64,000 nt of DNA. Origin: a bacterium. GTDB taxonomy: Bacteria > Desulfobacterota > DSWW01. The stretch spans positions 21,493 through 85,492 of the forward strand of contig JBFLZG010000137.1 in the NCBI GenBank assembly GCA_040756235.1. Direction: 5' to 3'. A program made the translations under genes and the position numbers. The notes beneath the pieces are model-generated. The model was not told the DNA's origin. It did no database searches and was given only the letters and a program-made list of their open reading frames with translations. The first letter of the stretch is position 1; every line of letters begins with the position of its first letter. This document shows, in pieces, positions 24,175 through 59,898 of the stretch.

Positions 24175-24250
24175 GTTCTCGTCCCTCCGTTCCGGGTTGA
24201 GGGGCTCGTCCCCTTCTGCCGCGGATGAATCTTCGGGCGTGCCTGCCCGG

Positions 24251-25762: not shown

Positions 25763-25837
25763 GGCTGCTCCCTCTGGGTGCCCGGGCATTCAGGCGATTC
25801 AAGGAAACCGGCTCGTTCTTGCTCCCCCTGGCACGGG

Positions 25838-29905: not shown

Positions 29906-30006
29906 TATCCGAGAGCCGGGTGGAGACGGACACGAGAGGGGGAGGTGCGCGCCCACCGTGTGAGATCCTGCGGACTCCGGGTGGGAAAACGAAAGGAGAT
30001 GCCCGG

Positions 30007-32366: not shown

Positions 32367-32394
32367 GAGCCCCGGGAGAGAGGGAGGTGGGAGG

Positions 32395-34336: not shown

Positions 34337-34366
34337 AAGTAGACCCCTTCCGTGGAGTGACGAGCG

Positions 34367-36268: not shown

Positions 36269-36409
36269 GAGTCAAATTTGAGGAGTGAGACGTAACCGGG
36301 AGTCACAGTGGACCCCGGCCTTCGCCGGGGCAGGCTCCCCCCGCCACATGCGCCATGCGGGCAGTACAGCGGATGTGCGTTTATCGACAGCTCATTACGG
36401 AGGGGAGCG

Positions 36410-38605: not shown

Positions 38606-38615
38606 GGGGGACCCC

Positions 38616-39443: not shown

Positions 39444-39476
39444 GCGCGGGAGGCTTCACCCTTGAGGAGAGAGGAT

Positions 39477-42425: not shown

Positions 42426-42436
42426 AGCAGGTTCTA

Positions 42437-42535
42437 GGTGTCAGGTTTCAGGTGTCGGACCCCCTCTTTCGCCCCTGAGAACTGGCCACTGAAAGCTGAC
42501 ACTGGGCAACTGAAAACGGGTAACTGACAACTCCT
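42437..42535 (+). repeat. short tandem repeats in the 137-bp gap before the CCG gene
   Basis: AGGTGTC/AGGTTTC/AGGTGTC at 42437-42457. Then about 2.5 copies of a ~21-bp unit rich in ACTGA (aactggccactgaaagctgac / actgggcaactgaaaacgggta / actgacaactcc) at 42481-42535. Confidence 0.7.
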
Positions 42536-42562
42536 CCAATCTTGACCGAGAGGGAGTCGACC

Positions 42563-46320: not shown

Positions 46321-48684
46321 TTGAAACGAATTGCAGCGACCATCTTCAAGATTCGACTGCCTTTGCTCATCGTGCTGGCTCTGGCCACGCTTCTGCTCGG
46401 CTACGAAGCGAGCCGCCTCCAGGTGGTGACCGACTTCTCCAAGATGGTCCCGGACGACCATGCATACATCGTCGATTACGGGCCCTACAAGCAGATCTTC
46501 GGCGGCGGCAACCTGATCCGGGTGGAGGTCTCCAGCAAGCAGGGCACGATCCTGACGACCCGGTTCCTCGAGCTGCTCCGGAAGGTCAACGAAGATGTGA
46601 TGTTCGTCAAGGGCGTCGACCGGCTGACCGTCCGGTCCCTGGTCTCGCCGGAGACCCGCTTCGTCATGATCAACGAGGAGGGGTTCGACCTGGGGCCGGT
46701 CGTTCCGCCCAGGATCCCGGACACGGACGAAGGCCTGGCCAAGATCCATGACAACATCCTGCTGGCCCAGCTCAAGGGCCGGCTGGTCTCGATGGACCTG
46801 GAGTCGGCCCTGATCACGGGCGAGATCTACGAGAGCGGCGTCGATTATCTTTCGGTTTACAGGCAGCTCAACGAGATCCGCAGGACCTACACGAGCGACG
46901 AGGTCGGGATCCATATCAACGGCTTCGCCATGGTCGTCGGCTTCGTGAGAGACGCCCTGCCCAAGATCCTGGGGCTGTTCGGCGCTTCCATCTTCATCAC
47001 GATCCTGATCCTGTACCGCTGCTTCCGCTACCTGAGGCTGGCGGTGCTGCCCCTGGCCTCCGGCGCGCTGAGCGTGCTCTGGTCTCTGGGGATCGCCCGC
47101 GCGCTGGGGTTGAGCCTGGATCCGATGACGACGATCGTGCCGTTCCTCGTGCTCGCGATCGGGGTGAGCCACGGCATCCAGATGGTGAAGCGTTATCTGG
47201 AGGAGTGCGCGGTCCACAAAGAGGGGTACGACGCCGCGATGCACGCGCTGGCCGGCCTGATCGTGCCCGGCGTCGTGGCTCTCGGGACCGATGCCTTCGG
47301 CTTTCTGACCATCCTGCTCGTGCCGATCGGCGTGATCCGCGAGCTGGCGCTCACGGCGACCCTGGGCGTCCTCTGCATCATCGTGGCCAACATCCTGGTG
47401 CTGACCCTGGTCCTTTCCTTCTTTCCCAACCTGCTCACGTGGAGTGTGGAACCGGCCGAAAAGCAGACCCGGCCCCTGGTGGGCCGCCTGCTCACGCGCG
47501 TCGCCGCCCTCACGCACGGCCGCAACGCTTACCGGGTCGGGGTCGTGTGCCTGGCGCTGCTGGTGATGGGATTCCTCTACGCCCGCGACATGACGGTCGG
47601 CGACGTCAATCCCGGGGAGCCGCTCCTGTGGAAGGACTCGGTCTACAACCAGGACGCGGCCAAGATAATGGCGGACTTCATGCTGGGGATCGACTGGCTC
47701 TCGGTCGTGGTGACGGGCGCGGAGGAAGGGCTCTGCAAGGATTACGGCGTGCTGCAGAAGATGGAGGACTACGAGTGGGAGATCGGCTCGATACCCGGGG
47801 TCACGGTCGTGCTCTCCCCGCTGATCCTGGCGAAGGCGGTCAACGAGATGCTCCATGAAGGGGACATCCGCTGGAGGGGCCTTCCCAAGCAGCCCAAGGA
47901 CCTGGGTTACGCCATGCACTACGCGGGCTCGCACGAAGACAGCGAGTTCATGAGCATGGGGTGCCAGTCCATGAACATCCGGATCTTCCTCAGCGATCAC
48001 AAGGGAGACACGATCCGGCGGGTGGTCGCCAGGACCAAAGAGTTCATTGCCGGCCATCCCATGGACAGGGCCCGGTTCGTCCTCGCCGGCGGCAATGCCG
48101 GGGTGATGGCGGCGACCAACGAGGTCGTGGGCCGGGAGCAGGTCCCGATGCTCGCGCTCGTCTACGCTTCCGTGTTCCTGCTCTGCGTCGTCATGTTCCG
48201 GGAGGTGAAGGGCGCACTTTTCATCATGGCGCCGCTGTTTCTCGTCTCGGTGCTCTCGACCGCCTTCATGAAGGCCGTGGGCCTGGGGCTGAACGTCAAT
48301 ACCCTTCCGGTGGCCTCGCTCGGCGTGGGGGTGGGTGTGGACTACGGGATCTACATCTACTCGCGGCTGAGAGAGGAGAGAAAGGTCCACGCGCGCTTCG
48401 CGGATGCCGTGCAGGCCACCCTGCACACGACCGGCGCGGCCGTGCTCTACACCGCCATGACCCTGACCGCAGGCGTGTTCACCTGGATCTTCTCGGACCT
48501 GAAGTTTCAGGCCGACATGGGCATCCTGACCGGGTTTCTGTTCATCGGCAACATGATCGGGGCGGTGGTGCTGATGCCCACCCTGGTGTACATCTTCGAC
48601 GCCAGAACCAAGGAAGCGGGTCCCGCGATGTGCGCACCGAGCGCGGCTCCGGTCCGCAAAGCATCCGGAGACGGGCGGGAGTGA
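46321..48684 (+). CDS. MMPL/RND-superfamily (COG1033-type) lipid transporter
   Basis: 787 aa from a TTG start. It has two 6-TM bundles, each preceded by a large soluble loop. The layout and length are typical of HpnN-like MMPL exporters. Confidence 0.85.
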   Translation: MKRIAATIFKIRLPLLIVLALATLLLGYEASRLQVVTDFSKMVPDDHAYIVDYGPYKQIFGGGNLIRVEVSSKQGTILTTRFLELLRKVNEDVMFVKGVDRLTVRSLVSPETRFVMINEEGFDLGPVVPPRIPDTDEGLAKIHDNILLAQLKGRLVSMDLESALITGEIYESGVDYLSVYRQLNEIRRTYTSDEVGIHINGFAMVVGFVRDALPKILGLFGASIFITILILYRCFRYLRLAVLPLASGALSVLWSLGIARALGLSLDPMTTIVPFLVLAIGVSHGIQMVKRYLEECAVHKEGYDAAMHALAGLIVPGVVALGTDAFGFLTILLVPIGVIRELALTATLGVLCIIVANILVLTLVLSFFPNLLTWSVEPAEKQTRPLVGRLLTRVAALTHGRNAYRVGVVCLALLVMGFLYARDMTVGDVNPGEPLLWKDSVYNQDAAKIMADFMLGIDWLSVVVTGAEEGLCKDYGVLQKMEDYEWEIGSIPGVTVVLSPLILAKAVNEMLHEGDIRWRGLPKQPKDLGYAMHYAGSHEDSEFMSMGCQSMNIRIFLSDHKGDTIRRVVARTKEFIAGHPMDRARFVLAGGNAGVMAATNEVVGREQVPMLALVYASVFLLCVVMFREVKGALFIMAPLFLVSVLSTAFMKAVGLGLNVNTLPVASLGVGVGVDYGIYIYSRLREERKVHARFADAVQATLHTTGAAVLYTAMTLTAGVFTWIFSDLKFQADMGILTGFLFIGNMIGAVVLMPTLVYIFDARTKEAGPAMCAPSAAPVRKASGDGRE

Positions 48685-48692
48685 GGACGACC

Positions 48693-49718
48693 ATGACACG
48701 AGGAGTTGCAGAGGCAGGGCAGCCGGGACGCGAAGCGGTGCCTGCGGAGACCCGGATGCACGGCAGGACGCATGCGCCTGCGGAGTCCGCCTTCGATCGG
48801 AAGTTCATCTCCACGGTCCTGGCTCTTCTCGGCGCGGCGATCGTGTTTTTCACCTATCTCCATTTCTATCAGCCTCAGATCCTGCGCGTTCCCAGCAACA
48901 CCGACGTCTCGAGCTGGACGAACCCCGCGTTCGAGCAGACCTGCATTTACGACCGCATGACTGCGGAAGAGCGACAAAGGGTACTGGAGCAGGGGATCCC
49001 GCTCAACACCGTCTCCAACCTGATCGTGGCCGCGCTCTTCTCGGTCGTCTGCTCCTGGCTCTGTTTCGCTCACGCCCGGAAGCACTACGGCCGCTGGATG
49101 GCCTGGTGCTTCCTGTTCGGCTCCTTTGTCTTCACCGGCGCGCAGGAATCGATGTGGATCCTATTCGGCCGGTTCATGGGGCGCTCGGCCATGAGCGGTC
49201 TGGCGCAGGACCCGAGCGTGGGGACCTACTGGTTCACGCGCGGCGCCCTGTGGTTCATCGAGACGCCCGTGGAAGTCTGCCTGGGCTGGTTCTTTGTCGC
49301 CTACGGATGCGTGTGGATAGCTTCGAGGGTCTTCCCGGCTACGAGGCTGCTGGGCCGGGCCGCCGTGGGAGGCCTCATTGCCATGACCATCGACCTGTGG
49401 GAAGACCCGGTCGCGACCTCGCCGGAGCTCATGAGCTGGGTTTGGGCCAAAGGGGATTTCCTGCGGATCTTCGGGATTCCCCACACGAACTTCCTGGGAT
49501 GGTTTCTCCTCATTTTCCTGTTCGCGATCTTCTGGGAATGGCTGCCCTCCATGGAGCGCCGCTGGGGTCGGGGGAGGGCGACTCTGGCGTTTTTCGGCAT
49601 TGTCGTGGCCACGGAGGCGGCGATTCTGATCTTCATGCTGGTATGGTGCAGCGCCTTTCAGTCCCTGCTCGCTGCTTTGGGCTTCCAGCAGGGCATCCAG
49701 ATACCGCAGGGCTGGTGA
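48693..49718 (+). CDS. CruF/DUF422-like polytopic membrane protein, paralog 1
   Basis: Only the 3' part of the listed 47961..49718 ORF is credible. The start is ATG 48693 (after GGAGTGAGGA) or ATG 48756. The motif is IDLWEDPVATSPELMSWVWAKGDFLRIFGIPHTNFLGWFLLIFLF. Confidence 0.65.
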   Translation: MTRGVAEAGQPGREAVPAETRMHGRTHAPAESAFDRKFISTVLALLGAAIVFFTYLHFYQPQILRVPSNTDVSSWTNPAFEQTCIYDRMTAEERQRVLEQGIPLNTVSNLIVAALFSVVCSWLCFAHARKHYGRWMAWCFLFGSFVFTGAQESMWILFGRFMGRSAMSGLAQDPSVGTYWFTRGALWFIETPVEVCLGWFFVAYGCVWIASRVFPATRLLGRAAVGGLIAMTIDLWEDPVATSPELMSWVWAKGDFLRIFGIPHTNFLGWFLLIFLFAIFWEWLPSMERRWGRGRATLAFFGIVVATEAAILIFMLVWCSAFQSLLAALGFQQGIQIPQGW

Positions 49719-49747
49719 GACCTCTCGCAATCAGACAGGAGCGCTCC

Positions 49748-49954
49748 ATGTGGAAGAAGATCTGGAGGAACCGGGTGGAGTTCTATCCCTATTTTGCCAT
49801 TTATCTCTTCTGGTTCATGGGTGCCTTCCTGGGATCGCTCGGGATCCAGAACCGGCCGGGGATCGTCGCCCTGGGCGTGGTGACCGTCCCTTCGCTCACG
49901 CTGATCACGATCGCAGCGGTCCGCACGTACAGAGGGCTCCCCGGGTCTGCCTGA
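49748..49954 (+). CDS. small 2-TM membrane protein (68 aa)
   Basis: ATG 49748 after CAGGAG. MWKKIWRNRVEFYPYFAIYLFWFMGAFLGSLGI...GIVALGVVTVPSLTLITIAAV. It fills the gap between paralogs 1 and 2. Confidence 0.45.
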   Translation: MWKKIWRNRVEFYPYFAIYLFWFMGAFLGSLGIQNRPGIVALGVVTVPSLTLITIAAVRTYRGLPGSA

Positions 49955-50000
49955 GCCGCCTCACTTGACCCTTTCCCCGTGACCAGGGAGGCAGGACCGA

Positions 50001-50981
50001 ATGAAGCCGGCACCCTCCGTTCCCCTCGCGTTCCCGGCGCCTCCGCGGCCTTCTTATGACCGGAGCTTCGGCGCCGTGGCTTACGGATCGCTCGTGGCGG
50101 TCCTGCTCCTCTTCAGCTACCTGCATCATTTTCAGCCGCAAGTCCTGCGTGTGCCCGACAACGGCAGCGTGTCCTCCTGGCAGCGTCCGGCCTTCGAGGA
50201 GACCCTGATCCACGACCAGATGACCGCAGCTCAGAGGCAGGAGATCCGGTCACGGGGCGTGGTCCTGGGTAAGGATTTCGGCATGCAGCTCGCGGGCGAC
50301 CTCTTCACCATGGCCCTGGCCTGGGTCTGTTTCAGCCACGCCCTGCGGCACTTCGGCTTTTGGATGGCCTCGTGCTTTCTCATGGGGTCCTTCGTCTTCA
50401 CCGGCCTGGAGGAGACCCTCTGGATCCTCTCGGGACGGTTTTTCGGCGGGATGGTCCACAACCCTCTGGGAGAGACCTTTCACGGCACCTACTGGTTCAC
50501 CCGCGGGATCTTCTGGTTTCTGGAAACCCCGATCACCGCGTGCCTCGGCTGGTTCTTCATCGCTTACTCGTGCGTGCTCACCGCAGGAAAGGTCTTCCCC
50601 CGCATGGGCCTCTGGGGACGGGCCACCGTGGGCGGGCTGATCGCCATGTCCATCGATCTCTGGATCGATCCGGTGCAGACGGCGCCCGAGGTCACCTCGT
50701 GGGTCTGGGCCAAGGGCGATTTCCTGCTGTTCTTCGGTATTCCCCACTACAATTTCATCGGCTGGTTCCTCCTGATCTTCCTGTTCGCCATCTTCTGGGA
50801 GAAACTGCCCGGCATGGAGGCGCGGTACGGCCGAGCCGGAGCGACGAACCGTTTCTTTGCCATCGTGCTCGGCGTTCCCTGGCTCGTTCTCTTCTTCATC
50901 TGGCTGTGGCTCTTCGTACTCGGGAGCCTCTTCTCCTGGGCGGGAGTGGAACAGGCGGTGCACGTGCCCAGGGGCTGGTAA
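50001..50981 (+). CDS. CruF/DUF422-like polytopic membrane protein, paralog 2
   Basis: Collinear with paralog 1 (HFQPQVLRVPDNGSVSSWQRPAFEE vs FYQPQILRVPSNTDVSSWTNPAFEQ). The motif is IDLWIDPVQTAPEVTSWVWAKGDFLLFFGIPHYNFIGWFLLIFLF. Confidence 0.7.
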   Translation: MKPAPSVPLAFPAPPRPSYDRSFGAVAYGSLVAVLLLFSYLHHFQPQVLRVPDNGSVSSWQRPAFEETLIHDQMTAAQRQEIRSRGVVLGKDFGMQLAGDLFTMALAWVCFSHALRHFGFWMASCFLMGSFVFTGLEETLWILSGRFFGGMVHNPLGETFHGTYWFTRGIFWFLETPITACLGWFFIAYSCVLTAGKVFPRMGLWGRATVGGLIAMSIDLWIDPVQTAPEVTSWVWAKGDFLLFFGIPHYNFIGWFLLIFLFAIFWEKLPGMEARYGRAGATNRFFAIVLGVPWLVLFFIWLWLFVLGSLFSWAGVEQAVHVPRGW

Positions 50982-51004
50982 CGGACCTGAAACCGGGAGA
51001 AGCC

Positions 51005-51976
51005 ATGAACGACGACAAGCTGGGTCGAGGCGCTTTCTTTTACATGACGGCCGTCACCGTCTTCAACGTGGGCAACGTCCTGTACAACTACTTCTTCGTG
51101 GACCCGGTTCAGTTCCAGCAGTCCTACCAGCGCGCCGGCGACGCGCCCGGACCGCTGGAGTACTCGGCCCTGGTCAACATCTGCCTGAACCTGGTGTTCC
51201 TTTTCTGGAGCTCCTCGCTGGCCAAGGGTTGGGGGCGCACCCTGTCGGCCTTCTTCATCACGGTCCTCATCGCCTTCGTGGCCGAGGGGCTGGGCGTGCA
51301 TTACGGCTACGTGTTCGGCCACTATCACTACTCCGGAATCCTCGGGGTGCAGGTATGGGCCGTGCCGATCATCGTGTGCATGGCCTGGGAGCCCATCCTC
51401 TACGCCGCCTATTGCCTCACCGACTTCCTGATCCCGTCGGACTTGAAGAAATCCGGCTCCTTCGTACGGCGGATCTTCCCCTACCTGATCATGGCGGCCT
51501 TCGGCGGCATGGCCACCACGGCCTGGGACCTCATGATCGACCCGTTCGCCGTGGATCAGGGCTGGTGGATCTGGGAACAGGGCGGCCCGTACACTCCGTA
51601 CATTGCGACCGGCGTTCCGATCAGCAACTTCTTCGGGTGGTGGAAGGTGGCCTTCGTGTGTCACCTCGTCTATCGCCTCATCCTGGAGACGCACCCCAAG
51701 CCCCGCCGTTCTCTTTACCTGAGCGTCTACGGTCCCCTTATGCTCTATCTGCACCTGTTCCTGGGCGCCCTGAGCTCGATGCTGCTCTTCCTGAAACGGC
51801 CGGAAGTGGCGATGATCGGGGTCATGTGCATGGGAGGATTCCTGGTCCTGGCTTTCGGAAAGATCTTTCTGCTGAAGCAGCGCGTGGCGCCGCACCCGGC
51901 TGACCGCTGGCTCGCGGGAGAGGCCGGGGAGCCGGCCGCGGAGATCTCGCGCGAGCACGGGCGAGCAGTGGGCTGA
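51005..51976 (+). CDS. DUF422 (carotenoid biosynthesis protein / CruF hydratase family) membrane protein, paralog 3 (most canonical)
   Basis: Start trimmed to ATG 51005. First half: AFVAEGLGVHYGYVFGHYHYSGILGVQVWAVPIIVCMAWE. Second half: AWDLMIDPFAVDQGWWIWEQGGPYTPYIATGVPISNFFGWW. Both match the E..G...G.PFG.Y.Y / D...DP....W.W...GVP..NF.GW pattern I recall for PF04240. Confidence 0.65.
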   Translation: MNDDKLGRGAFFYMTAVTVFNVGNVLYNYFFVDPVQFQQSYQRAGDAPGPLEYSALVNICLNLVFLFWSSSLAKGWGRTLSAFFITVLIAFVAEGLGVHYGYVFGHYHYSGILGVQVWAVPIIVCMAWEPILYAAYCLTDFLIPSDLKKSGSFVRRIFPYLIMAAFGGMATTAWDLMIDPFAVDQGWWIWEQGGPYTPYIATGVPISNFFGWWKVAFVCHLVYRLILETHPKPRRSLYLSVYGPLMLYLHLFLGALSSMLLFLKRPEVAMIGVMCMGGFLVLAFGKIFLLKQRVAPHPADRWLAGEAGEPAAEISREHGRAVG

Positions 51977-52140
51977 GGTGCTCATTCGTAGCAGGGAGGC
52001 CACGGTGGCGGCCGGAGCGAGCACCATGAGCACTCGGTAGGGTGGACCAAGCCGAAGGCGTGTCCACCAACCACGGCTGCCGCATCGCGAGCGTGGCACT
52101 TGCGCGAAGTACAACCCGCCGGAGGTAAACAGGCAAGCAC

Positions 52141-53007
52141 ATGAGACTGGATTCCTGGGTAATGGAGCTGTTCTTCCTGCCCCTCGTGTACCTGGTCATG
52201 CGCGAGGCGCGGATCGTTTACGGCCGGGAGCGGGCCAGCATCTTTTTCTGGGGCTCGATCCTGTGGACCGGAACGATCGAGAACCTGGCGGTCATGTTGG
52301 GGGCCTACGACTACTTCGCCTACGCCAACTACTATTCCTTCGGTGGCAGGGTGATCCAGGGCTACGGCGGCTGGGTCGCCTGGATTCTGTTCGTCCCGGT
52401 CTCGATCTGCCTGGGCTGGTTCTTCCTGAGCTTTCCGGCCCTGATGGTCTCCATCCGCCTGCTGGGTGACCGGGCCAACATCTGGCTCAAGGCCGCCTTC
52501 GCGGGGCTCATCTTGGTGAGCTACGACGTGTTCTTCGACCCCCTGGCCGTGGTCAACCAGTGGTGGCGCTGGACCACGCCGGCCTTGTACATCCGCGGGG
52601 TCCCCTTGAGCAACTGGATCGGCTGGTTCTTCCTGCTGTTCTTTTTCGGCGCCCTCTACGAGCGCACCGTGCTGCAGCAGAAGGGGGTGAGAGGGCTTGT
52701 CTGGCTGGAGAGAATGCTGTTCCGGGCCGACACCACGGACCTTTCCGGCATGGACACCTGGAGAATCGGGAGGATCTTCTACTTCCGCCTGGCGGCCTAT
52801 CTGCCGGTGTTCTTCGCCGTCTCCATGATCGCCTCGCTGCTCACGACGACCCTCTGGAACAATCGGTGGGGTCCCTACCACAACGTCTTTCCGGCCACGG
52901 CCATTCACGAAAAGTACACGATTCCTGCAGCGGGACAGGCCGGCTCGCCCCGGCAGGAGCCGGCCATCCTCTCGGTCGGAGAGCAGCCATCGGGAGCAGA
53001 CAGATGA
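52141..53007 (+). CDS. CruF/DUF422-like polytopic membrane protein, paralog 4
   Basis: GTIENLAVMLGAYDYFAYANYY... and YDVFFDPLAVVNQWWRWTTPALYIRGVPLSNWIGWFFLLFFF. Confidence 0.65.
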   Translation: MRLDSWVMELFFLPLVYLVMREARIVYGRERASIFFWGSILWTGTIENLAVMLGAYDYFAYANYYSFGGRVIQGYGGWVAWILFVPVSICLGWFFLSFPALMVSIRLLGDRANIWLKAAFAGLILVSYDVFFDPLAVVNQWWRWTTPALYIRGVPLSNWIGWFFLLFFFGALYERTVLQQKGVRGLVWLERMLFRADTTDLSGMDTWRIGRIFYFRLAAYLPVFFAVSMIASLLTTTLWNNRWGPYHNVFPATAIHEKYTIPAAGQAGSPRQEPAILSVGEQPSGADR

Positions 53008-53252
53008 ATCATGCGGACCCTGTTGCGGATGCGGATTCGGCCGGCGCCGACAGAGCCCGGCGGAGAATGGCTTTCTGGCCTCTGCTCATGTACCTGATCG
53101 GGCTCGTCTGGGCGTACCTGAGCGTCCCTTTCGAGGGCCACACCTCCGCCCCGGAGAACGTCGTCTACAGCGTGCTGGTGGCAGGCCCCTTTTGGATCGC
53201 CATGCTCGTTTTCCTGGTCGTCGTCCGGCGGGATGGACGTGCGAAACCGTGA
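53004..53252 (+). CDS. small 2-TM membrane protein (82 aa)
   Basis: ATG 53004 overlaps the paralog 4 stop (ATGA). MAFWPLLMYLIGLVWAYLSV ... VVYSVLVAGPFWIAMLVFLVVV. Confidence 0.45.
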   Translation: MNHADPVADADSAGADRARRRMAFWPLLMYLIGLVWAYLSVPFEGHTSAPENVVYSVLVAGPFWIAMLVFLVVVRRDGRAKP

Positions 53253-53264
53253 TCTCCGGAGGGG

Positions 53265-54341
53265 ATGCAGATGGCCGAAAAGATCCATATTCTCGGGGCA
53301 GGCTTGTCGGGGATGGTTGCGGCGATCAACCTCGCTCGGCAGGGCCGGGAGGTTCTGGTGCTGGAGGGGGCGAAGGGCCTGGGCGGCATGGGCGGGCTGC
53401 ACCCCTCGGTGCACACGACCCCGATCGATCCGGCCTGGATGAGCCGGGAGATCGGTATCGACGTGACCCCGGTCTTCCACAGACCTAAAGGGTTCATGCT
53501 CGGCCTCGGCGACAAGACCTTCAAGCTCGACCCCGGCCCCATGCATTCCGTGGAGCGGGGCGCAAGGAAGACCTCGATCGACACCTTGCTCTACGAGGAG
53601 GCCCAAGCGGCCGGGGTCGCGTTCCAGTTCGGGGTCTACCTCAAGGACCTGCGCCAGCTTCCGAAGGGCTCGATCATCGCCACCGGACTCCACCACGAGA
53701 TGTACGACTACCTGGCCATACCCTCCGAAGTCCCGCGCGGCTTTGCCTCCACCCGCAAGATCGACTGGGAGAACTGGTGCGCGGGCAGTATGGCCTCTTA
53801 CACGGACGACTACTTTTACGCCAACTGCGTCAACCAGCTCATGTACGGGCTCCTGTTCGGCCGCAGGAAGGTGACGGTGGAGGGGCTGGAGGCCTGCAAG
53901 CTGGACATCCGGAAGAAGTTCGGCCTGGAGCTCGAGAACTGGGAGTACTTCACGGTGCGGGTGCCCACGGCCTCTGCCACCAACCCGAGGCTGTTCCAGG
54001 ACGGCTACATCCTGGCCGGCACCCTGGCCGGCGCCATGGACCCGATCGCCCTGTTCGGCATCCATGGCGCGCTGCTCTCGGGCAAGGTCGCGGCGACGGC
54101 GGTGGAGAGCCCGGATCAAGGCCTCGCGGAGTTCCGCAGGATCACGCGCTACTACCGGATCGCGTACTACGTGAAGCAGTTTCAGAAGAGCCTGCCGCCC
54201 AACCTGGCCGCGATGGAGTTCTCCCTCCGTCACCCGCGTCTGTTCTACCCGATGATGGCGATCTCCTCCGTCTCCGTACCGGGGTACCGTCAAGGCAACT
54301 GGAACTACGAGGTCATGAAGAAGTTGGAGAGGGTGCAGTAG
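53265..54341 (+). CDS. FAD-dependent oxidoreductase, geranylgeranyl-reductase-like
   Basis: KIHILGAGLSGMVAAINLARQGREVLVLE (Rossmann GxGxxG...E). LAGTLAGAMDPIALFGIHGALLSGKVAATA resembles the GDAAG.VDP.TG.GI..A..SG..AA block of the GGR/FixC family, with GT in place of GD. Confidence 0.55.
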   Translation: MQMAEKIHILGAGLSGMVAAINLARQGREVLVLEGAKGLGGMGGLHPSVHTTPIDPAWMSREIGIDVTPVFHRPKGFMLGLGDKTFKLDPGPMHSVERGARKTSIDTLLYEEAQAAGVAFQFGVYLKDLRQLPKGSIIATGLHHEMYDYLAIPSEVPRGFASTRKIDWENWCAGSMASYTDDYFYANCVNQLMYGLLFGRRKVTVEGLEACKLDIRKKFGLELENWEYFTVRVPTASATNPRLFQDGYILAGTLAGAMDPIALFGIHGALLSGKVAATAVESPDQGLAEFRRITRYYRIAYYVKQFQKSLPPNLAAMEFSLRHPRLFYPMMAISSVSVPGYRQGNWNYEVMKKLERVQ

Positions 54342-54423
54342 CCTCGAGCCTGCCCTCTACGACTCGGTCTATGTCGGGCGGAGGTTACATCACCGGGTCT
54401 TTCCGGGGTCCCGGGGAGAAACC

Positions 54424-57084
54424 ATGGAGCACTTCAGGCTATTCATCGATGGCGAGTTCGTCGAGGCCGAAAGCGGCGCCAGGCGCCCGTCCCTGGACCC
54501 GGGCAATGGCCAGCCCGTCGCCACCGTGGCCTGGGCCGGCGTGAGAGACGCCGATCGGGCCGTAATGGCCGCGCGGCGCGCTTTCGACAAAGGCGACTGG
54601 AGCGGTCTCGCTCCCAAGGACAGATCCCGATTCCTCTTCGACCTCGCGGACCGGCTGGGGAAGATGGCGCTGCGCATCATCCAGTACGAGTGCCAGGACT
54701 CCGGCGCCACGGTACGCCGCATCGGCGGGGAAGTGCTCGTGACGTCGGTGGTGATCCGGGACCTGGCCTGGTACGCGGCCGAGAAATTCGCCTGGCGGGA
54801 AGAGGTTCGTCTGAGCAGCTTCATTCCGACCCCGTGCCGGGACTACGTCGTTCGAGAACCCGTCGGCGTCTGCGCCGGCATCGCCCCCTGGAACGCTCCC
54901 TTCTCCATGGCGATCCTGAAGATCGTTCCCGCCGTCATCATGGGCAATGCGGTGGTTCTGAAGACCGCCTCCGACACGCCGATCAGCGCGCTCCTGTTGG
55001 CCGAGGCGGTGGCCGCCAGCGGCATACCGAAGGGAGTGGTCAACGTGATCACGGGTCCCGGTCCGGAAGTCGGCGAGGCCCTCTGCCGCCACCCGGGGGT
55101 CGACAGGATCAGCTTCACCGGCAGCACCGAGGTGGGGCGCAGGATCCTCGAGATGGGCGCCGACTCCGTCAAGAGAGTGACCGTGGAGCTGGGCGGCAAG
55201 TCGGCCGGCATCGTGCTGCCGGACGCAGACCTGGACATCGCCGTCGATGGTTCCGTCTTCGGCATCTTCCTCCACTCGGGCCAGGTCTGTGCCGCAGCCA
55301 GCCGGCTGCTCGTGCACCGGGACGTCTATGAGCCGTTCGTCGAACGGTTGAAGGCGCGCATTCCGGCCCTGAAGCTCGGCTACCAGCTGAACCCCGAAGT
55401 GCACATGGGACCTCTCATCTCCGAACGGCAAAGGGAGCGGGTCGAGCGGTATGTCGAGATCGGCAGGCGGGAAGGGGCGCGGCTCGTCTGCGGCGGCAGG
55501 CGTCCCGAGGGGCAGGAGTTCAGCAGCGGATTCTATTACGAACCCACGGTGTTCGCGGATGTCGACAATCGAATGACCATCGCCCGGGAGGAAATCTTCG
55601 GCCCCGTGGCCTGCGTCATACCCTTCGCAAGCGACGAGGAGGCGCTTCGGTTCGCCAACGACTCGGATTACGGGCTGGTCGGCGCGGTCTGGAGCCGTGA
55701 CACCGCACGGGCCGAACGCATCGCCGCGCGCATTCGGGCCGGCACGGTCTGGGTCAACGACTGGAACGCCTTCAACCAGTTCACGCCCTTCGGCGGATAC
55801 AAGCGGAGCGGCCTGGGACGGGAATTCGGACACGAGGGGCTCGCCGCGTACACCGAGGTCAAGCATCTGCACGTCTCCGGGGTGGCGGACAAGGAGAGCC
55901 GCGTCACGTATCAGCTCATGTTCGACTACCCGGCGAGCAAGGCCTTCCAGTTTCAGAGCCCCACCAGGATCGACGTCGGACCGGGAGCGGTTCAGAACAT
56001 CGGCAGCGAGATGTTCCAACTGGGCTGCCGACGGGCGGTCATCTTGTCTGACAAAGGGGTCCGGGACGCCGGCCTCGTGGACGTCGTCCAAAAAGCCGTG
56101 GGCGACTCGTGCGCGGGAGTTTTCGATGGTTGCGAGGAGGACCCCAGCTTCGAATCGGTCGACCGGGCCGCGGAGTTCTGCCGAAAGGCAGGCGCCGACT
56201 GTCTGATCAGCCTCGGCGGCGGCAGCTGCATCGACACCGCCAAATCGGTGTCGGTGATTCTTACGGTGGGAGGCAGGGCTCTCGATCATATCTTTGCCAG
56301 CCGCCTCGAGGGGCCGGTCACGCCGCACATCGCGGTCCCCACCACCGCGGGGACCGGTAGCGAGGTGACCTGCGGAGCGATCCTCACCCACAGGAAGCTG
56401 GGCCGCAAGCTGGGCTTCATGGACAAGGCCGTTTTTCCCCGGGCCGCGATCCTGGACCCGGTGCTCACCCGAACGCTTCCGCGGGGCCTTACCGTCGGCA
56501 GCGGGATGGACGCCCTCTCCCACGCCATCGAGGCGATCCTCTCCAAGCTCAGGAACCCGGTGGCAGAAGCCCACGGCCTCCACGCGATTCGCCTGATCGT
56601 GGAGAACCTTCCGCGGGCCGCGGAGCACCCGGACGATCTCGACGCGCGACTCAACATGCAGATTGCCTCCTCCATGGCCGGCATCGCGGTGTGCTCTGCA
56701 GGGGCGGGCGTGGGACACGCCATGGCGCACACGCTCGGGGCCTTGTATCACGTGCATCACGGAACCGGCTGCGGTATCTGCCTGCCCGTGGCCATGCGCT
56801 ACAATAAGGAGGTTTGCGCCCCGGAGCTGGCCCGTGTCGCCCAGGCCCTGGGCGTCGATACGCGCGGCCTCACAGAGAACGAAGCTGCGGATTCCGCTGT
56901 AACCGAGGTCGAGGGATTCATGCAACGTATCGGCCACCCGATCCGGATGAGCGAGGTGGGGGTGGACGAGACGGACTACGTGGTCCTGGCCCTGGAATGC
57001 ATGCTCGAGTTCTGCTGCCTCCTCAACGCCCGGCCGGTCACCAACCCCCTGGAGGTGGCTCACATGTTCCAGGCGGTGGCCTGA
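54424..57084 (+). CDS. fusion of a classical NAD(P)-dependent aldehyde dehydrogenase and an iron-containing alcohol dehydrogenase
   Basis: The N-terminal ~480 aa carry both ALDH signatures (VELGGKSA; FLHSGQVCAAASR) plus EEIFGPV. The C-terminal ~390 aa are Fe-ADH (GGGSCIDTAKS; HAMAHTLGALYHVHHGTGCGICLP). Confidence 0.85.
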   Translation: MEHFRLFIDGEFVEAESGARRPSLDPGNGQPVATVAWAGVRDADRAVMAARRAFDKGDWSGLAPKDRSRFLFDLADRLGKMALRIIQYECQDSGATVRRIGGEVLVTSVVIRDLAWYAAEKFAWREEVRLSSFIPTPCRDYVVREPVGVCAGIAPWNAPFSMAILKIVPAVIMGNAVVLKTASDTPISALLLAEAVAASGIPKGVVNVITGPGPEVGEALCRHPGVDRISFTGSTEVGRRILEMGADSVKRVTVELGGKSAGIVLPDADLDIAVDGSVFGIFLHSGQVCAAASRLLVHRDVYEPFVERLKARIPALKLGYQLNPEVHMGPLISERQRERVERYVEIGRREGARLVCGGRRPEGQEFSSGFYYEPTVFADVDNRMTIAREEIFGPVACVIPFASDEEALRFANDSDYGLVGAVWSRDTARAERIAARIRAGTVWVNDWNAFNQFTPFGGYKRSGLGREFGHEGLAAYTEVKHLHVSGVADKESRVTYQLMFDYPASKAFQFQSPTRIDVGPGAVQNIGSEMFQLGCRRAVILSDKGVRDAGLVDVVQKAVGDSCAGVFDGCEEDPSFESVDRAAEFCRKAGADCLISLGGGSCIDTAKSVSVILTVGGRALDHIFASRLEGPVTPHIAVPTTAGTGSEVTCGAILTHRKLGRKLGFMDKAVFPRAAILDPVLTRTLPRGLTVGSGMDALSHAIEAILSKLRNPVAEAHGLHAIRLIVENLPRAAEHPDDLDARLNMQIASSMAGIAVCSAGAGVGHAMAHTLGALYHVHHGTGCGICLPVAMRYNKEVCAPELARVAQALGVDTRGLTENEAADSAVTEVEGFMQRIGHPIRMSEVGVDETDYVVLALECMLEFCCLLNARPVTNPLEVAHMFQAVA

Positions 57085-57142
57085 TGAGAGCCCGCTGAAG
57101 AACAGGCACCGTGGCAGGCGAGCGGAAGCAGCGGATCGGCTT

Positions 57143-57161
57143 CTTCAACAGCCTGTTGAAG
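57143..57161 (+). promoter_or_regulatory. perfect 9-bp-arm palindrome CTTCAACAG-c-CTGTTGAAG abutting the RBS of the CrtC-like gene
   Basis: It ends 13 nt before ATG 57175. Its 3' arm runs into GGGGAG, the likely Shine-Dalgarno. Confidence 0.4.
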
Positions 57162-57174
57162 GGGAGCAAGCGTC

Positions 57175-58164
57175 ATGGCCCACGAGAAGACCGCGCAGAT
57201 CATCAAAGACCCGCCCGGCGTGGATGAAACGGCCCATCCCTTCGAGCCGGTCGAGTGGTGGTACGCCAATGCGCTGCTCGATGCGCCCGGCTCCCCCATC
57301 GACGGCTGCGCTCTGGTCGGGACATTCACGATCCAGAGGCAAATGGCCGAGTATTGCCATGGCCTGATCGTTTCGCCCGAAAAAGGGTCCTTGGCAGATT
57401 TTTCAGGCTACGAGCTGCCACCCGGGACCATTTCGAGCAGCCAGGAGGAGCTGCGCGTGGGCTGCCGCAAGAACTACCTGCGCGGCCGCTACCCCCGATG
57501 GAGGCTGCACCTGGAGGGAGAGGACTCGGGGCGTCTCTGCAGGGCCGATCTCGAATACCAGGCCGGGGTGGACGCGGACCGCCGCACCTACGACATTCCC
57601 CCTTCCTACATGCATCACTACGTCGTCTATCGGAGCCGGGTCCGGGGAGCGATCACCCTGGGAAAGGAGAGCTGGGAGGTCCGGGGAACGGGCTACTACG
57701 AGCATTTCTTCGGTTTCCTGAATCCGCTCGAGTCGAGCGGGTGGATCTGGTACTGGTGTCCCGCGGCCGGACCGCACCGGCTGGCCTTCAACCTGGGGGT
57801 GAGCGCCTTCCGGGGCGGCCGCAAGCCCCTGAGCTTCGTGTTTCTTACGGAAGACGGCAAGACCTTCGCCGACTTCACGTCGGCGTCGCTCGAGGTGCTG
57901 GAAGAGAGGAATCTCGGGGGGATCGTCTACCCGCACAAGATCCGTGTGACCGAAAGAAGCGAACAAGGGAAGCTCGACGCGGTGGTCACCCGGATGGAGG
58001 CCCATTATCACAGGGTGAACCGCAGCCCCCTGGCCACGTCCATATTCGTCACCGGCTTCTCGCTTCTGGAGGGGAGGGCCGCCTGGATGGGCCGGGGCTA
58101 CGACCTCACGGGCCGCGCCTTCGGCAGCGTCATGCGGGTGGAGCTGCCCGAGACGAACCCGTAG
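57175..58164 (+). CDS. CrtC/AttH-like lipocalin-fold hydratase (carotenoid 1,2-hydratase superfamily)
   Basis: HPFEPVEWWYANALLDAPG near the N-terminus and GTGYYEHFFG mid-protein are the two blocks I associate with the hydroxyneurosporene synthase (CrtC)/AttH family. 329 aa, with no signal peptide. Confidence 0.5.
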   Translation: MAHEKTAQIIKDPPGVDETAHPFEPVEWWYANALLDAPGSPIDGCALVGTFTIQRQMAEYCHGLIVSPEKGSLADFSGYELPPGTISSSQEELRVGCRKNYLRGRYPRWRLHLEGEDSGRLCRADLEYQAGVDADRRTYDIPPSYMHHYVVYRSRVRGAITLGKESWEVRGTGYYEHFFGFLNPLESSGWIWYWCPAAGPHRLAFNLGVSAFRGGRKPLSFVFLTEDGKTFADFTSASLEVLEERNLGGIVYPHKIRVTERSEQGKLDAVVTRMEAHYHRVNRSPLATSIFVTGFSLLEGRAAWMGRGYDLTGRAFGSVMRVELPETNP

Positions 58165-59637: not shown

Positions 59638-59898
59638 CCGAGCTTCCCTTCGCGCGGGTGGTGAAAGCAAGGCGCTCCTGCCAGAAGTTGATCGATTCAC
59701 GAGCCTATGGATCGGCGGGCTCCGTCCAAAAGTTGATCAAGACACCTGAAGAGTCGCCCCCGGGGCGCGGACCCGATCCGGCGGAAATCAGGCGGTTCCC
59801 GGTCGCTGCACCCATCGAATCGGATGAGAATGAGCTGTCGCGCGGAAGCTGCGGCAACCGCTCATCATCTGATGTATACATGCCGATGACAGGGAGGC

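Follow-up and report, generated by a model that had tools for sequence, protein, structure and literature searches.

The question raised by the present locus is whether a run of genes combining a membrane transporter, CruF-like membrane proteins, a flavoprotein, a dehydrogenase fusion and a CrtC-like protein forms a module of its own for the hydration of isoprenoids, as was suggested in the original prediction. The run occupies positions 46321-58164 of the window, i.e. of the whole stretch of 64,000 nucleotides analysed, and originates from an uncultured anaerobic bacterium of the Thermodesulfobacteriota, which may be a relative of Syntrophia. It is indeed a single co-directional run on the forward strand (as are all features given below, unless indicated otherwise), and the genes exist at, or close to, the positions expected for them: an HAE3/MMPL transporter, four CruF-family proteins (M1-M4), two micro-ORFs (mic1 and mic2), a flavoprotein, an ALDH/Fe-ADH fusion and a soluble protein designated here T. 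The gaps from the transporter gene to that of T are, in gene order, 71, 29, 46, 23, 164, -4, 12, 82 and 90 bp, the negative value corresponding to the ATGA at 53004-53007, where the start of mic2 overlaps the stop of M4.

The assignment of the four membrane proteins as CruF/DUF422-like was borne out. Three of them score above the PF04240 gathering threshold in Pfam—M1 (48756-49718) with 36.1 bits at a cutoff of 25, the canonical member M3 (51005-51976) with 106.5 bits, and M4 (52141-53007), representing a third subtype, with 48.3 bits—and M2 (50001-50981), giving no direct Pfam match, is a close paralogue of M1 (54% identity), many homologues of which have precomputed PF04240 matches. M1 is N-terminally extended and probably starts at 48756, yielding the 320-aa product P0096 of the collection, with 48693 as an alternative start. 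Although all four are related, they are not four equivalent paralogues but one close pair (M1/M2) and two distant family members, the similarity being E = 5e-5 between M2 and M3 and E = 4e-9 over 113 aa between M3 and M4. The residues E131, D213 and D217-P218 (M1 numbering) are invariant in all three CruF-like subtypes; the family-invariant positions, listed for M2, include H42, H113, E138, E175, D219 and D223-P224. In the family-model scan, none of M1-M4 reached the CruF equivalog cutoff, M3 giving 62 bits with TIGR03460 (cutoff 154.7).

Both micro-ORFs encode conserved proteins with two transmembrane segments. The 68-aa mic1 (49748-49954), exhibiting two hydrophobic segments, is a conserved partner of the M1/M2-type proteins, with copies at 60-78% identity in 18 related loci (17 contigs). 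Eight other loci have weaker copies (28-46%) directly 3' of CruF-like genes that are more distant; distant single-copy CruF-like genes, too, are followed by a mic1-type gene. An overlapping frame from 49750 was rejected as the first micro-ORF. The 82-aa mic2 (53004-53252) has copies (44% identity) after the M4 orthologues of the loci L004, L012 and L013, which are 55-61% identical to M4.

Concerning the transporter (46321-48684; 787 aa), Pfam recognizes the MMPL and sterol-sensing domains and the best family is TIGR00921 (152 bits). It is thus an MMPL protein of the HAE3 class of RND transporters, as expected, but it is not HpnN, for which it scores 70.9 bits against a cutoff of 751.85. Upstream of it lies the gene for a Ycf48/BNR-like periplasmic protein (43864-44844; PSII_BNR, 99.6 bits). 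This pair resembles AmeC and AmeD of Castellaniella defragrans, in which AmeABCD—a DUF1302 protein, a DUF1329 protein, a Ycf48-like protein and a 787-aa HAE3 RND protein—is encoded beside geoA in the island for anaerobic monoterpene degradation (PMC6394551). A cluster of Ycf48 and MMPL proteins, named "Nanopod", has also been proposed for anaerobic benzene degradation (PMC13101534). Among the related loci, a Ycf48-like gene adjoins an RND gene in L007, L009 and L021 and a CruF-like gene in L016, and MMPL homologues are found beside CruF-like arrays or core genes in L007, L009, L021 and L036.

The flavoprotein (53265-54341; 358 aa) adopts, in a confident AF2 model (pLDDT 93), the PHBH/GR2 fold, its Pfam match being confined to the N-terminal Rossmann region. 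Its proposed likeness to geranylgeranyl reductases (GGR) stands at the level of structure, the best Foldseek match being the GGR-like 3oz2 (E = 6.8e-16, TMq 0.65), with group-A monooxygenases and FixC close behind, but not at the level of family, since only 34 bits were obtained with the GGR model (cutoff 158). The 886-aa fusion (54424-57084) was confirmed as well, consisting of Aldedh (541 bits), Fe-ADH and ADH_Fe_C; the score with the BADH-type ALDH model (507 bits) exceeds that with the AdhE model (267 bits, cutoff 951), and with a non-acylating ALDH half the predicted oxidation of an alcohol to the free acid is plausible.

The last protein, T (57175-58164), had been considered CrtC-like. 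It matches no sequence model of Pfam, NCBIfam or the PDB, the CrtC/AttH models being silent even at E <= 10; its structure model, however, retrieves 2ich (E = 1.6e-10), kievitone hydratase 7a0t (TM 0.65) and the 25-phosphosteroid lyase 9g4c in Foldseek, the profile comparison in hhalign links it to a PF07143-positive protein with 95.5% probability, and 11 of its 40 profile relatives carry PF07143. The structure model, profile-profile match and remote relatives together place T in the two-barrel AttH/CrtC fold, near kievitone hydratase and the 25-phosphosteroid lyase. The subfamily is rare, with only 18 clusters at E <= 1e-30 among 1.84 billion representatives. In a low-identity alignment, residues of T coincide with the catalytic His and Tyr of CrtC (PMC4717167), whereas the CrtC Asp is replaced by Glu and the Trp is missing. 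In the characterised AttH-family enzymes CrtC, kievitone hydratase and Hgs, the reaction takes place at a tertiary carbon of an isoprenoid (bioRxiv 10.1101/2025.10.20.683597). Two unrelated families to which hydratases belong, PF04240 and the AttH/CrtC fold, are thus present, as predicted, but a hydratase activity and an isoprenoid substrate are what we infer from them.

Nevertheless, the run is not the conserved unit. Its upstream neighbourhood starts with a TetR-family regulator (TetR_N and TetR_C_29 in Pfam) at 33421-34089 on the reverse strand, divergent from the genes for a ChsH2-type DUF35 protein with OB fold and zinc ribbon (34361-34840), an SCPx/Ltp-type thiolase matching thiolase-domain and lipid-transfer-protein models (34923-36086; 289 bits with BbsB, below its cutoff), a PaaK-like acyl-CoA ligase with AMP-binding_C_2 (36308-37789; 126-138 bits with the PaaK models, below their cutoffs), a pair of DUF2148 ferredoxin-domain proteins assigned by Pfam (37802-38605 and 38499-39443, the second start being uncertain), a 987-aa flavoprotein with two fused FAD_binding_4 domains (39462-42425) and its partner, a CCG/HdrD-like Fe-S protein (42542-43801). 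The latter two show likeness to GlcDEF/PCMH-type dehydrogenases, the C-terminal half of the flavoprotein matching best p-cresol methylhydroxylase 1dii (E = 4e-25), followed by VAO/eugenol oxidase and then D-lactate dehydrogenase. A Cys-rich 365-aa protein with two [4Fe-4S] clusters (44901-45998; Fer4 matches), a homologue of which occurs in none of the related loci, is an uncertain member of the island. The window further contains two acyl-CoA dehydrogenases, two enoyl-CoA hydratases and SDRs, and its TetR regulators number three; the CoA ligase and thiolase belong to the same catabolic surroundings.

In MAGs of uncultured Thermodesulfobacteriota—all related loci come from MAGs—the genes found at 33.4-43.8 kb in the window are met again together with the CruF-like arrays, the strongly conserved micro-ORF and the flavoprotein, all of which also recur with the AmeCD-type Ycf48 and RND pair. 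L004 and L013 share the order TetR-DUF35-thiolase-ligase-flavoprotein-CCG-M-mic-M...M4-mic2, which in L012 lacks DUF35, thiolase and ligase; the TetR homologues (63-69% identity) are placed alike in all three, and the pair of 987-aa flavoprotein and CCG protein lies directly 5' of the array. In L012 and L013, TetR and the gene for a 356-aa flavoprotein are divergently oriented, and homologues of the 53265-54341 flavoprotein occur in L007, L012, L013, L021, L035 and L036. Since L004, L012 and L013 are 55-84% identical to the window, part of this synteny may come from common descent. L007 and L021 are more distant, and their genes, though shuffled, have stayed together, with thiolases/DUF35, ligase, thioesterase, flavoprotein, Ycf48, MMPL, an AttH-like gene and four to five M1/M2 paralogues plus M3 (and DUF1302 in L007), and M3 orthologues come after M1/M2 arrays in L006, L007, L014, L018, L021, L022, L024 and L027. 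L035 and L036 keep the core, including DUF35, thiolase, ligase and the flavoprotein-CCG pair (in L035 also the DUF2148 pair, at 51-59% identity), without any CruF-like gene, and the arrays are therefore accessory to it. Aldehyde-oxidising functions recur there via unrelated enzymes, namely AFOR and an SDR in L035 and an SDR in L036. The fusion and T constitute a separable two-gene module rather than the integral part once assumed: an 84% identical fusion adjoins a T homologue in L001, an ALDH adjoins one in Nocardia nova (operon TetR / T-ALDH-SDR-P450-MpaB/Lcp-like-acyl-CoA ligase), and only in the window is a CruF-like array adjacent, other AttH-like genes lying beside such arrays in L007, L018 and L021. 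Conservation applies to arrays, micro-ORF and flavoprotein together with the upstream genes, not to the order from MMPL to T; the run is the downstream half of an island that spans roughly 33.4-58.2 kb, about 25 kb at the least, and to which the genes for beta-oxidation, starting near 23 kb, probably belong as well.

That these genes are mere neighbours from unrelated operons of a gene-dense genome is very improbable. The fusion with T does occur elsewhere without the others (L001, Nocardia), the Fer4 gene is unique to the window, and promoter and terminator scans were uninformative, but the same families recur together in varied orders and at 27% to 84% identity in many MAGs, and the gaps in the run are tiny, with one start overlapping a stop. 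Nor is it likely that a biosynthetic cluster is involved, in which the CruF-like and AttH-like hydratases and the GGR-like reductase would hydroxylate or saturate the cell's own membrane isoprenoid or another lipid, and an HpnN-like MMPL protein export it to the outer membrane. In favour of such a cluster, the sole activity on record for PF04240, to our knowledge, is carotenoid end-group hydration, within carotenoid biosynthesis; the characterised CrtC members are biosynthetic, too, and the best fold match of the flavoprotein is a lipid-saturating GGR-like protein. Hgs is an AttH-family lipid hydratase (bioRxiv 10.1101/2025.10.20.683597), and the HAE3 members characterised besides AmeD are hopanoid exporters (PMC6394551). 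No prenyltransferase, phytoene or squalene synthase or cyclase was, however, found in the scanned ORFs of the window or of the neighbouring loci. The arrays are consistently accompanied by TetR, CoA ligases, thiolases/DUF35, thioesterase, acyl-CoA dehydrogenases and enoyl-CoA hydratases; with as many as seven in tandem (L014), the paralogues fit breadth of substrate better than a single lipid product, and a fusion making free acid is atypical for lipid tailoring. For crtB, crtE and cyclases, the claimed lack of carotenoid genes was confirmed in all window ORFs scanned, but two weakly CrtI/CrtD/HpnE-like flavoproteins, at 27645-28997 (reverse strand) and 29920-31521, had been missed.

A rather unlikely, though weightier, possibility is that the same catabolic island serves a non-isoprenoid compound (an alkylphenol, aryl-alkanoate, PAH-derived acid or long-chain alkene), with the CruF-like proteins adding water to C=C bonds of a different kind or acting as membrane partner, i.e. 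anchor or quinone site, of the flavoprotein and CCG protein. HdrD/GlpC-type CCG proteins usually require such a partner, and M-mic-M follows immediately after the CCG gene in L004, L012 and L013; the same pair in L035 and L036, however, dispenses with CruF-like genes and so does not require them. The likeness to p-cresol methylhydroxylase and VAO/eugenol oxidase, the PaaK-like ligase and the resemblance of the thiolase to BbsB favour such a substrate, as do the OYE-type reductase gene near the L036 core (Oxidored_FMN and Pyr_redox_2, 670 aa) and the GlcDEF-like complex of the "Magic" cluster proposed for anaerobic benzene activation (PMC13101534). Against it stand the recorded chemistry of PF04240, the AttH-like genes beside arrays in four independent settings, and the SCP2 and SCPx-type thiolases and sterol-sensing-like RND protein, which suit lipids; nor was a haem or quinone motif seen.

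We tentatively prefer, with a probability of about 0.45, an island for the anaerobic catabolism of an unsaturated hydrophobic substrate, probably of the isoprenoid type, that would be activated by hydration; no published description of such an island was found. The absence of synthesis genes and the catabolic surroundings agree with the original idea of O2-independent functionalisation instead of pigment synthesis, its hydration step and substrate being deduced, like every activity and the direction of transport, from gene content, families, folds and neighbourhoods. Several points count against this preference: PF04240 activity is recorded only in carotenoid biosynthesis and M1-M4 stay below the CruF cutoffs, the fusion and T meet a CruF-like array only in the window, and T has Glu for Asp and lacks the Trp of CrtC. 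The flavoprotein-CCG pair, which comes nearest to enzymes acting on 4-alkylphenols and 2-hydroxy acids, and the PaaK-like ligase suit an aromatic or other substrate as much as an isoprenoid. Moreover, the products of CruF/CrtC-type hydration are tertiary alcohols, not open to oxidation by an ADH, so that the link to the fusion would need a putative isomerisation or another regiochemistry.

In the catabolic island preferred here, the hydrophobic compound would be dealt with at the cell envelope by an AmeC/AmeD-type pair, the HAE3 RND pump and its Ycf48-like neighbour. Complexes embedded in the membrane, formed by M1-M4 with a 2-TM micro-subunit for each type, would use the invariant membrane Glu and the DxxxDP aspartates to protonate a C=C bond and then hydrate it, or for the reverse reaction; the PHBH/GGR-fold flavoprotein would reduce or introduce a C=C bond, and at a tertiary carbon T may catalyse another hydration, an elimination or an isomerisation. 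The primary alcohol so formed would be oxidised by the fusion, first to the aldehyde and then to the free acid, and the PaaK-like ligase would make the CoA thioester, to be degraded by the PCMH/GlcDE-like flavoprotein with its CCG partner, the SCPx-type thiolase with DUF35, the acyl-CoA dehydrogenases and the enoyl-CoA hydratases. With expression of the island controlled by TetR repressors, the bacterium would thus achieve, through the M/mic step, an O2-independent functionalisation of its substrate within the bilayer.

The stretch 46321-58164 is a single co-directional gene run, located in a window of 63-66% GC, in which a gene for an RND/MMPL transporter is followed by those of the membrane protein M1, the micro-protein mic1, the membrane proteins M2, M3 and M4, the micro-protein mic2, a 358-aa flavoprotein, an ALDH-ADH fusion and a soluble protein of the AttH/CrtC fold, designated here as T. 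The gaps between successive genes, from the transporter to T, amount to 71, 29, 46, 23, 164, -4, 12, 82 and 90 bp. This run had been recognised in the original prediction, and the observation stands with corrected coordinates; the ATGA start/stop overlap at 53004-53007 is real. Scans for promoters and terminators gave the same picture for the real sequence as for a shuffled one, and the window scan found no tRNA genes.

The four membrane proteins M1 (48756-49718), M2 (50001-50981), M3 (51005-51976) and M4 (52141-53007) had been proposed as members of the CruF family PF04240, and this assignment holds, M1 (36.1 bits), M3 (106.5 bits) and M4 (48.3 bits) all passing the Pfam gathering score of 25 bits; M2 gives no direct match, yet it is 54% identical to its close paralogue M1, and many of its homologues have precomputed PF04240 matches. 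M3 and M4 are remote relatives of one another and of M1/M2; in all three subtypes, a membrane Glu is invariant and the motifs DxxxDP and G-[IV]-P-x-x-N-x-x-G-W are present. They resemble CruF (carotenoid C-1',2' hydratase or bisanhydrobacterioruberin hydratase) in being polytopic membrane proteins of PF04240 with these two motifs. The identity with the CruF equivalogs was, however, rejected, the best score, that of M3, being 62.1 bits vs 154.7 for TIGR03460, 46.4 vs 400 for NF045693 and 45 vs 300 for NF041333; M1 and M2 exhibit no match at all to these three models, and a PDB sequence/profile search with the M1/M2 family returned only noise (E >= 0.14).

In contrast to CruF, the proteins of the M1-M4 type are encoded in tandem arrays, this layout being the rule for the CruF-like genes (2 to 7 paralogues per array), and are accompanied by an apparently dedicated 2-TM micro-subunit; M1 and M2 have, in addition, an extra N-terminal TM helix and a loop of ~60 residues. 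The hosts of the arrays are strict-anaerobe MAGs, in which the neighbours are catabolic and carotenoid genes are not nearby. The M1/M2 family counts 240 members in a large sequence collection and 27 loci among the GTDB species representatives, all from MAGs labelled as Thermodesulfobacteriota, Deltaproteobacteria, Syntrophobacteria, Syntrophaceae, Desulfobacteraceae or unclassified bacteria. A crtB/crtI/lyeJ/crtY neighbourhood was absent from the scanned ORFs of both the 64-kb window and the related loci, where only weak CrtI-family-like flavoproteins were seen. The earlier statement that the crt synthesis genes are missing was borne out, since prenyltransferase, phytoene/squalene synthase and cyclase were all absent from the scanned window ORFs. 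The loci with distant single-copy M-like genes (L026, L028 and L032-L034), the contexts of which are unrelated, also yielded no carotenoid genes.

Both micro-ORFs of the run encode real 2-TM proteins. The first of them, mic1 (49748-49954, forward strand, 68 aa, two TM helices, no Pfam match), shows 60-78% identity across loci, which exceeds the conservation of the M proteins around it, and a weaker homologue is found directly 3' of the distant single-copy CruF-like genes in unrelated contexts; examples of the homologues are L009:6761-6955, L021:9146-9346, L026:10811-10987 and L033:10732-10878. The frame 49750-49957, possibly the one implied in the original prediction, was rejected as the micro-ORF, its weak cross-locus matches being a by-product of the far better conserved frame 49748-49954. 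Because mic1 is conserved across loci and its homologue trails even distant M-like genes, the M gene with its mic gene represents an old two-gene unit, and mic1, judged from this conservation, looks like an obligate small subunit of the CruF-like proteins. Such a 68-aa partner, easily missed by automatic annotation, offers a new testable subunit.

When all proteins of the window were compared by tblastn with the fetched loci, and the gene tables were consulted as well, the synteny gave module boundaries different from those of the run 46321-58164, which had been put forward as one module: the array travels with the upstream core, and the ALDH-ADH and T genes are separable. Immediately ahead of the array, L004 and L013 both have genes for TetR, DUF35, thiolase, PaaK-like ligase, a 981-aa double FAD_binding_4 protein and CCG, in the same order as at 33.4-43.8 kb of the window; L012 has TetR, the flavoprotein and CCG without the DUF35, thiolase and ligase genes. 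The pair M4-mic2 is positioned at the array end in all three (L004, L012 and L013), and in L012 and L013 a 356-aa homologue of the flavoprotein is transcribed divergently from TetR. The more distant L007 and L021 present a reordered set of thiolases/DUF35, AttH-like protein, four to five M genes, M3, ligase, thioesterase, flavoprotein, Ycf48 and MMPL, with DUF1302 added in L007. The core exists also without any CruF-like gene, namely in L035 (FAD_binding_4, CCG, FAD_binding_4, flavoprotein, two DUF2148, SCP2, ligase, DUF35, thiolase, SDR and AFOR) and in L036 (the core plus DUF1302-MMPL). Since the core persists in these array-less loci, the conserved unit consists of the upstream core, the flavoprotein and the RND set, and the CruF-like arrays are an accessory added by a subset of lineages.

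It should be noted that AttH-like genes of a subfamily other than that of T accompany the arrays in L007, L018 and L021; the co-occurrence of two hydratase-type families is, therefore, recurrent rather than accidental. In the closest syntenic loci, the place of M3 is occupied by a gene (L004:11056-12375, with homologues of 74% identity in L012 and L013) for a 439-aa soluble protein without a Pfam match, having a duplicated P-C-G-S-G-G-R-L motif and followed downstream by two further micro-ORFs (91 and 69 aa). Near the array of L013 there is a gene for a B12-binding radical SAM protein (18271-20097, reverse strand), and a 702-aa gene with a weak B12-binding match is close to the core genes in L035 (16164-18272). 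Both recall the pairing of Ted, a B12-radical SAM desaturase, with Hgs, an AttH hydratase, in archaeal lipid modification; among the scanned window ORFs, no B12-binding radical SAM gene was found.

Concerning the upstream core, it includes two DUF2148 proteins (37802-39443) and, at 39462-43801, a double FAD_binding_4 flavoprotein with a CCG/HdrD-like protein. The former of this pair is a 987-aa fusion, the C-terminal half of which is closest to p-cresol methylhydroxylase (PCMH) and VAO, i.e. enzymes that hydroxylate 4-alkylphenols with water. In Ca. Anaerobenzenivorax ORM2a, the 'Nanopod' cluster, with YCF48-related and MMPL proteins, and the GlcDEF-like 'Magic' cluster supply the most abundant proteins in anaerobic benzene degradation and have been proposed to serve benzene activation and transport (PMC13101534). 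The window, likened by description to this member of the Desulfobacterota, shares with it a GlcDEF-like complex of two flavoproteins and Hdr/CCG, an acyl-CoA synthetase and the YCF48-related and MMPL proteins; it differs in that its two flavoproteins are fused and in that the main text of the paper names no PF04240/carotenoid-family protein for those clusters (PMC13101534).

The island is flanked by beta-oxidation-type genes (23020-27411 and 31287-33201), which encode acyl-CoA dehydrogenases, enoyl-CoA hydratases and SDRs, two of each. Two CrtI-family/amine-oxidase flavoproteins, not mentioned in the original prediction, are encoded at 27645-28997 (reverse strand) and 29920-31521 (forward strand), near a TetR gene (29044-29694, reverse strand), and resemble the CrtD, HpnE and carotenoid isomerase models weakly, with scores far below the cutoffs; flavoproteins of a similar kind, together with SCP2, are encoded in the vicinity of the L006 arrays and of the L036 core genes. 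The segment 1-18383 is an exopolysaccharide/glycan cluster with four glycosyltransferases, two sulfotransferases, a Wzy-like polymerase, a flippase, Bac_transf, two FemAB-like proteins, Poly_export/SLBB and a beta-barrel porin. At the other side, the run faces a convergent gene (58216-59700, reverse strand) for a 494-aa carboxylesterase/alpha-beta-hydrolase, in which a hydrophobic N-terminal stretch and a subsequent Cys have the look of a lipoprotein signal; an alpha/beta hydrolase is found also 3' of the array in L013.

The last two genes of the run form a module separate from the rest of it. The ALDH half of the 886-aa fusion (54424-57084) best matches non-acylating types (BADH with 507 bits, HpaE and StyD), all of them below the equivalog cutoffs, the other half being an Fe-ADH; the AdhE-type identity was rejected, as NF010378 scored 267 bits vs the cutoff of 951 and matched over the ADH half. 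In L001, the ALDH-ADH and T pair, with 80-84% identity, is located beside an acyl-CoA dehydrogenase and an SDR, the CruF-like genes being absent, and among the fetched loci compared, the pair adjoins an array in this window only. The Nocardia homologues of T, exemplified by Nocardia nova SH22a (L003, CP006850.1 3913507-3934604), belong to an operon TetR / T-ALDH-SDR-P450-MpaB/Lcp-like-acyl-CoA ligase. Since N. nova SH22a figures in the rubber-degradation literature, that operon may be an aerobic isoprenoid-aldehyde pathway; no paper mentioning the N. nova locus tag was found.

T itself (57175-58164) has no match in Pfam or NCBIfam at E <= 10, nor in the PDB sequences, regardless of whether the single sequence or the profile was used; the direct match to the CrtC/AttH models PF07143 and PF17186 expected from the original prediction is thus missing at E <= 10, and the protein was, therefore, placed by fold and profile methods. 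Its AF2 model (pLDDT 86) is all-beta and two-barrelled (two-domain lipocalin-like), and Foldseek against the PDB retrieved AttH NE1406 (2ich; E = 1.6e-10, TM 0.63), kievitone hydratase (7a0t; TM 0.65), fungal Diels-Alderases and 25-phosphosteroid lyase (9g4c). With hhalign, the T profile aligned to a 337-aa protein that adjoins a CruF-like array (L007:964-1977) with 95.5% probability (E = 1.5e-8), and that protein scores 27.5 bits vs the cutoff of 22.5 for PF07143, the N-terminal domain of CrtC. Among 40 remote matches of the T profile, PF07143 was present in 11, DA_N in five and Lipocalin_9 in four. At the level of fold, the proposal of a CrtC-like protein is thus upheld by the two-barrel model, the Foldseek matches and transitive homology. 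The family is tiny: 14 clusters (90% identity), most of them hypothetical proteins from Nocardia, among 5.8 billion sequences, 18 clusters (50%) with E <= 1e-30 among 1.84 billion representatives, and only two distant relatives from a metagenome scan with the profile.

As a CrtC reference for the alignment of T, a Novosphingobium photosynthesis gene cluster (L038), found by tblastn against plasmids, was used, the CrtC of which has H-R-W and then, 27 residues later, Y-L-D; the catalytic residues of CrtC are H239, W241, Y266 and D268 (PMC4717167). The invariant Y174-x-E176 of T falls on the Y266-x-D268 site, the invariant H148 lies near H239 and no Trp occupies the position of W241, these equivalences being tentative because the identity is just 16-22%. 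T as a true CrtC was rejected, with Glu in place of Asp, the Trp unconserved and the family models silent; T is a divergent protein of the AttH/CrtC fold, for which an acid-catalysis site is plausible. It shares the two-barrel fold (TM 0.63-0.65 to 2ich and 7a0t) and a G-x-G-Y-x-[DE] motif with the AttH/CrtC hydro-lyases, i.e. CrtC, kievitone hydratase, Hgs and 25-phosphosteroid lyase; like the last-named enzyme, which acts in anaerobic sterol/cholesterol side-chain degradation, T is associated with alcohol/aldehyde oxidation. Unlike CrtC, it always adjoins an ALDH and never carotenoid genes, and its subfamily is very rare. Tertiary isoprenoid carbons are where characterised enzymes of the AttH family act, for example CrtC, kievitone hydratase and Hgs, a hydroxy-GDGT synthase (bioRxiv 10.1101/2025.10.20.683597).

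The flavoprotein (53265-54341) is matched by sequence models only in its Rossmann N-terminus, and its label as a geranylgeranyl reductase (GGR) survives in part: TIGR02032 reaches 34.3 bits vs 158.8 over residues 9-125 only, while the model (pLDDT 93) places the GGR-like Ta0516 first in Foldseek (3oz2; E = 6.8e-16, TMq 0.65). Group-A flavin monooxygenases and the Sulfolobus GGR follow closely behind, with VioD, 3HB6H, KMO and FixC within about two orders of magnitude. Since the family model fails, and the monooxygenases and FixC are nearly equal by fold, 'GGR-like' is valid at the fold level only. In contrast to GGR, the flavoprotein is ~40-100 residues shorter, and its GD-type motif, as read from the sequence, is AGTLAG with the Asp missing.

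As far as the transporter is concerned, the gene at 46321-48684 encodes an MMPL/HAE3 RND protein with a sterol-sensing-like domain, the best family being TIGR00921 with 152 bits (cutoff 351.9). The suggestion of an HpnN-type hopanoid transporter was not sustained, as the HpnN models remained far below their cutoffs (TIGR03480 70.9 bits vs 751.85; NF052374 39.1 vs 1100), and no hopanoid genes were found. Instead, a Ycf48-like gene (43864-44844) is located upstream of the RND gene, with one Fe-S gene between them, and the pair recurs in L007, L009 and L021. The product of the intervening gene (44901-45998), 365 aa long, has a 2x[4Fe-4S] domain at its C-terminus and an unusual stretch rich in Cys (VFVCNCCGCCCGFL); none of the related loci has a homologue of it. 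AmeABCD of Castellaniella defragrans consists of one protein each of DUF1302 and DUF1329, a Ycf48-like protein of 316 aa and an HAE3 RND protein of 787 aa, sits in an anaerobic monoterpene island and is required for growth on monoterpene hydrocarbons (PMC6394551). The arrangement of AmeCD-type cassettes, an HAE3 RND gene preceded by a COG4447/Ycf48-like gene in a catabolic island, is present in the window apart from the intervening Fe-S gene, and, likened by architecture and description, the Ycf48-like protein (326 aa vs 316 in AmeC) and the RND protein (787 aa, as AmeD) agree in length as well. DUF1302 (AmeA) and DUF1329 (AmeB) were absent among the scanned window ORFs, DUF1302 being present in L007 and L036. 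The Ycf48-like and RND pair fits the Ame architecture better than HpnN.

The resemblance extends to the surroundings, since the window set lies within a hydrophobe-catabolic island and adjoins alcohol/aldehyde dehydrogenases. The Castellaniella Ldi/GeoA/GeoB pathway proceeds by hydration followed by oxidation, and a logic of water addition, ADH, ALDH and CoA may be common to both islands. They differ in that the hydratase candidates of the window are not of the Ldi family, the ADH is of the Fe-type and fused to ALDH, and the host belongs to another phylum.

Based on the above results, the island is best explained as serving a strict anaerobe in the catabolism of a hydrophobic unsaturated compound. 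The RND and Ycf48-like proteins would handle this compound at the envelope, the complexes of CruF-like proteins with micro-subunits would add or eliminate water within the membrane, the GGR-fold flavoprotein would contribute C=C redox chemistry and the AttH-fold proteins chemistry at tertiary carbons; the alcohol would then be oxidised to the acid and activated with CoA, with subsequent beta-oxidation- or retro-aldol-type degradation via the SCPx-type thiolase/DUF35. An isomerisation or other regiochemistry would be needed, because hydration of the CruF/CrtC type gives tertiary alcohols, which are not oxidisable by ADH. The suggestion of an isoprenoid substrate comes from the hydratase families, for which no other chemistry is known, from the SCP2/SCPx and sterol-sensing-like parts, from the CrtI-like flavoproteins and from the Ame precedent. 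The PCMH-like flavoprotein and the PaaK-like ligase would equally indicate an aromatic or aryl-alkyl moiety. The most specific form of the isoprenoid reading, in which tandem CruF-family proteins with their 2-TM micro-subunits are an O2-independent membrane hydratase/dehydratase machine that, together with the GGR-fold flavoprotein acting on C=C bonds and AttH-fold enzymes, starts anaerobic isoprenoid-lipid breakdown, is a bold one, to which we would give roughly one chance in five; its candidate substrates are squalene, carotenoids, polyprenyl/quinone side chains, phytol-derived chains and archaeal lipid chains.

With regard to the original interpretation as a whole, the presence of two hydratase-type families, a catabolic and not a biosynthetic character and the lack of a published description were retained. 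Its module boundaries were not, nor were the labels HpnN and GGR or the implied grouping of the last two genes with the others. The literature search by the PF04240 accession and family names, judged by titles, found no description of this kind of cluster; for anaerobic squalene/isoprenoid hydratase genes it found reviews only, and for methanogenic pristane/squalane degradation no gene-level data. The gene island, built from known families, is probably new, and the mechanism is moderately supported.

The attack of strict anaerobes on unactivated isoprenoid/alkene chains is poorly understood; to our knowledge, the few enzyme systems are linalool dehydratase-isomerase, the Mo-dependent steroid C25 hydroxylases with the kinase/lyase route and fumarate addition. 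By uniting two independent hydratase-type families with a hydrophobe-handling RND system and a CoA-dependent degradation set, the island gives clonable candidates for a hydration-based route. If the bold reading above is true, it would be the first to assign enzymes to a process that has so far been traced by metabolites and geochemistry alone, and two enzyme families hitherto seen only in biosynthesis would gain a role in catabolism. Confirmation of the island's proposed role would bear on lipid-biomarker turnover in anoxic sediments, supply new regio-selective alkene hydratases for biocatalysis and give both PF04240 and a new AttH subfamily a function unconnected with pigments.
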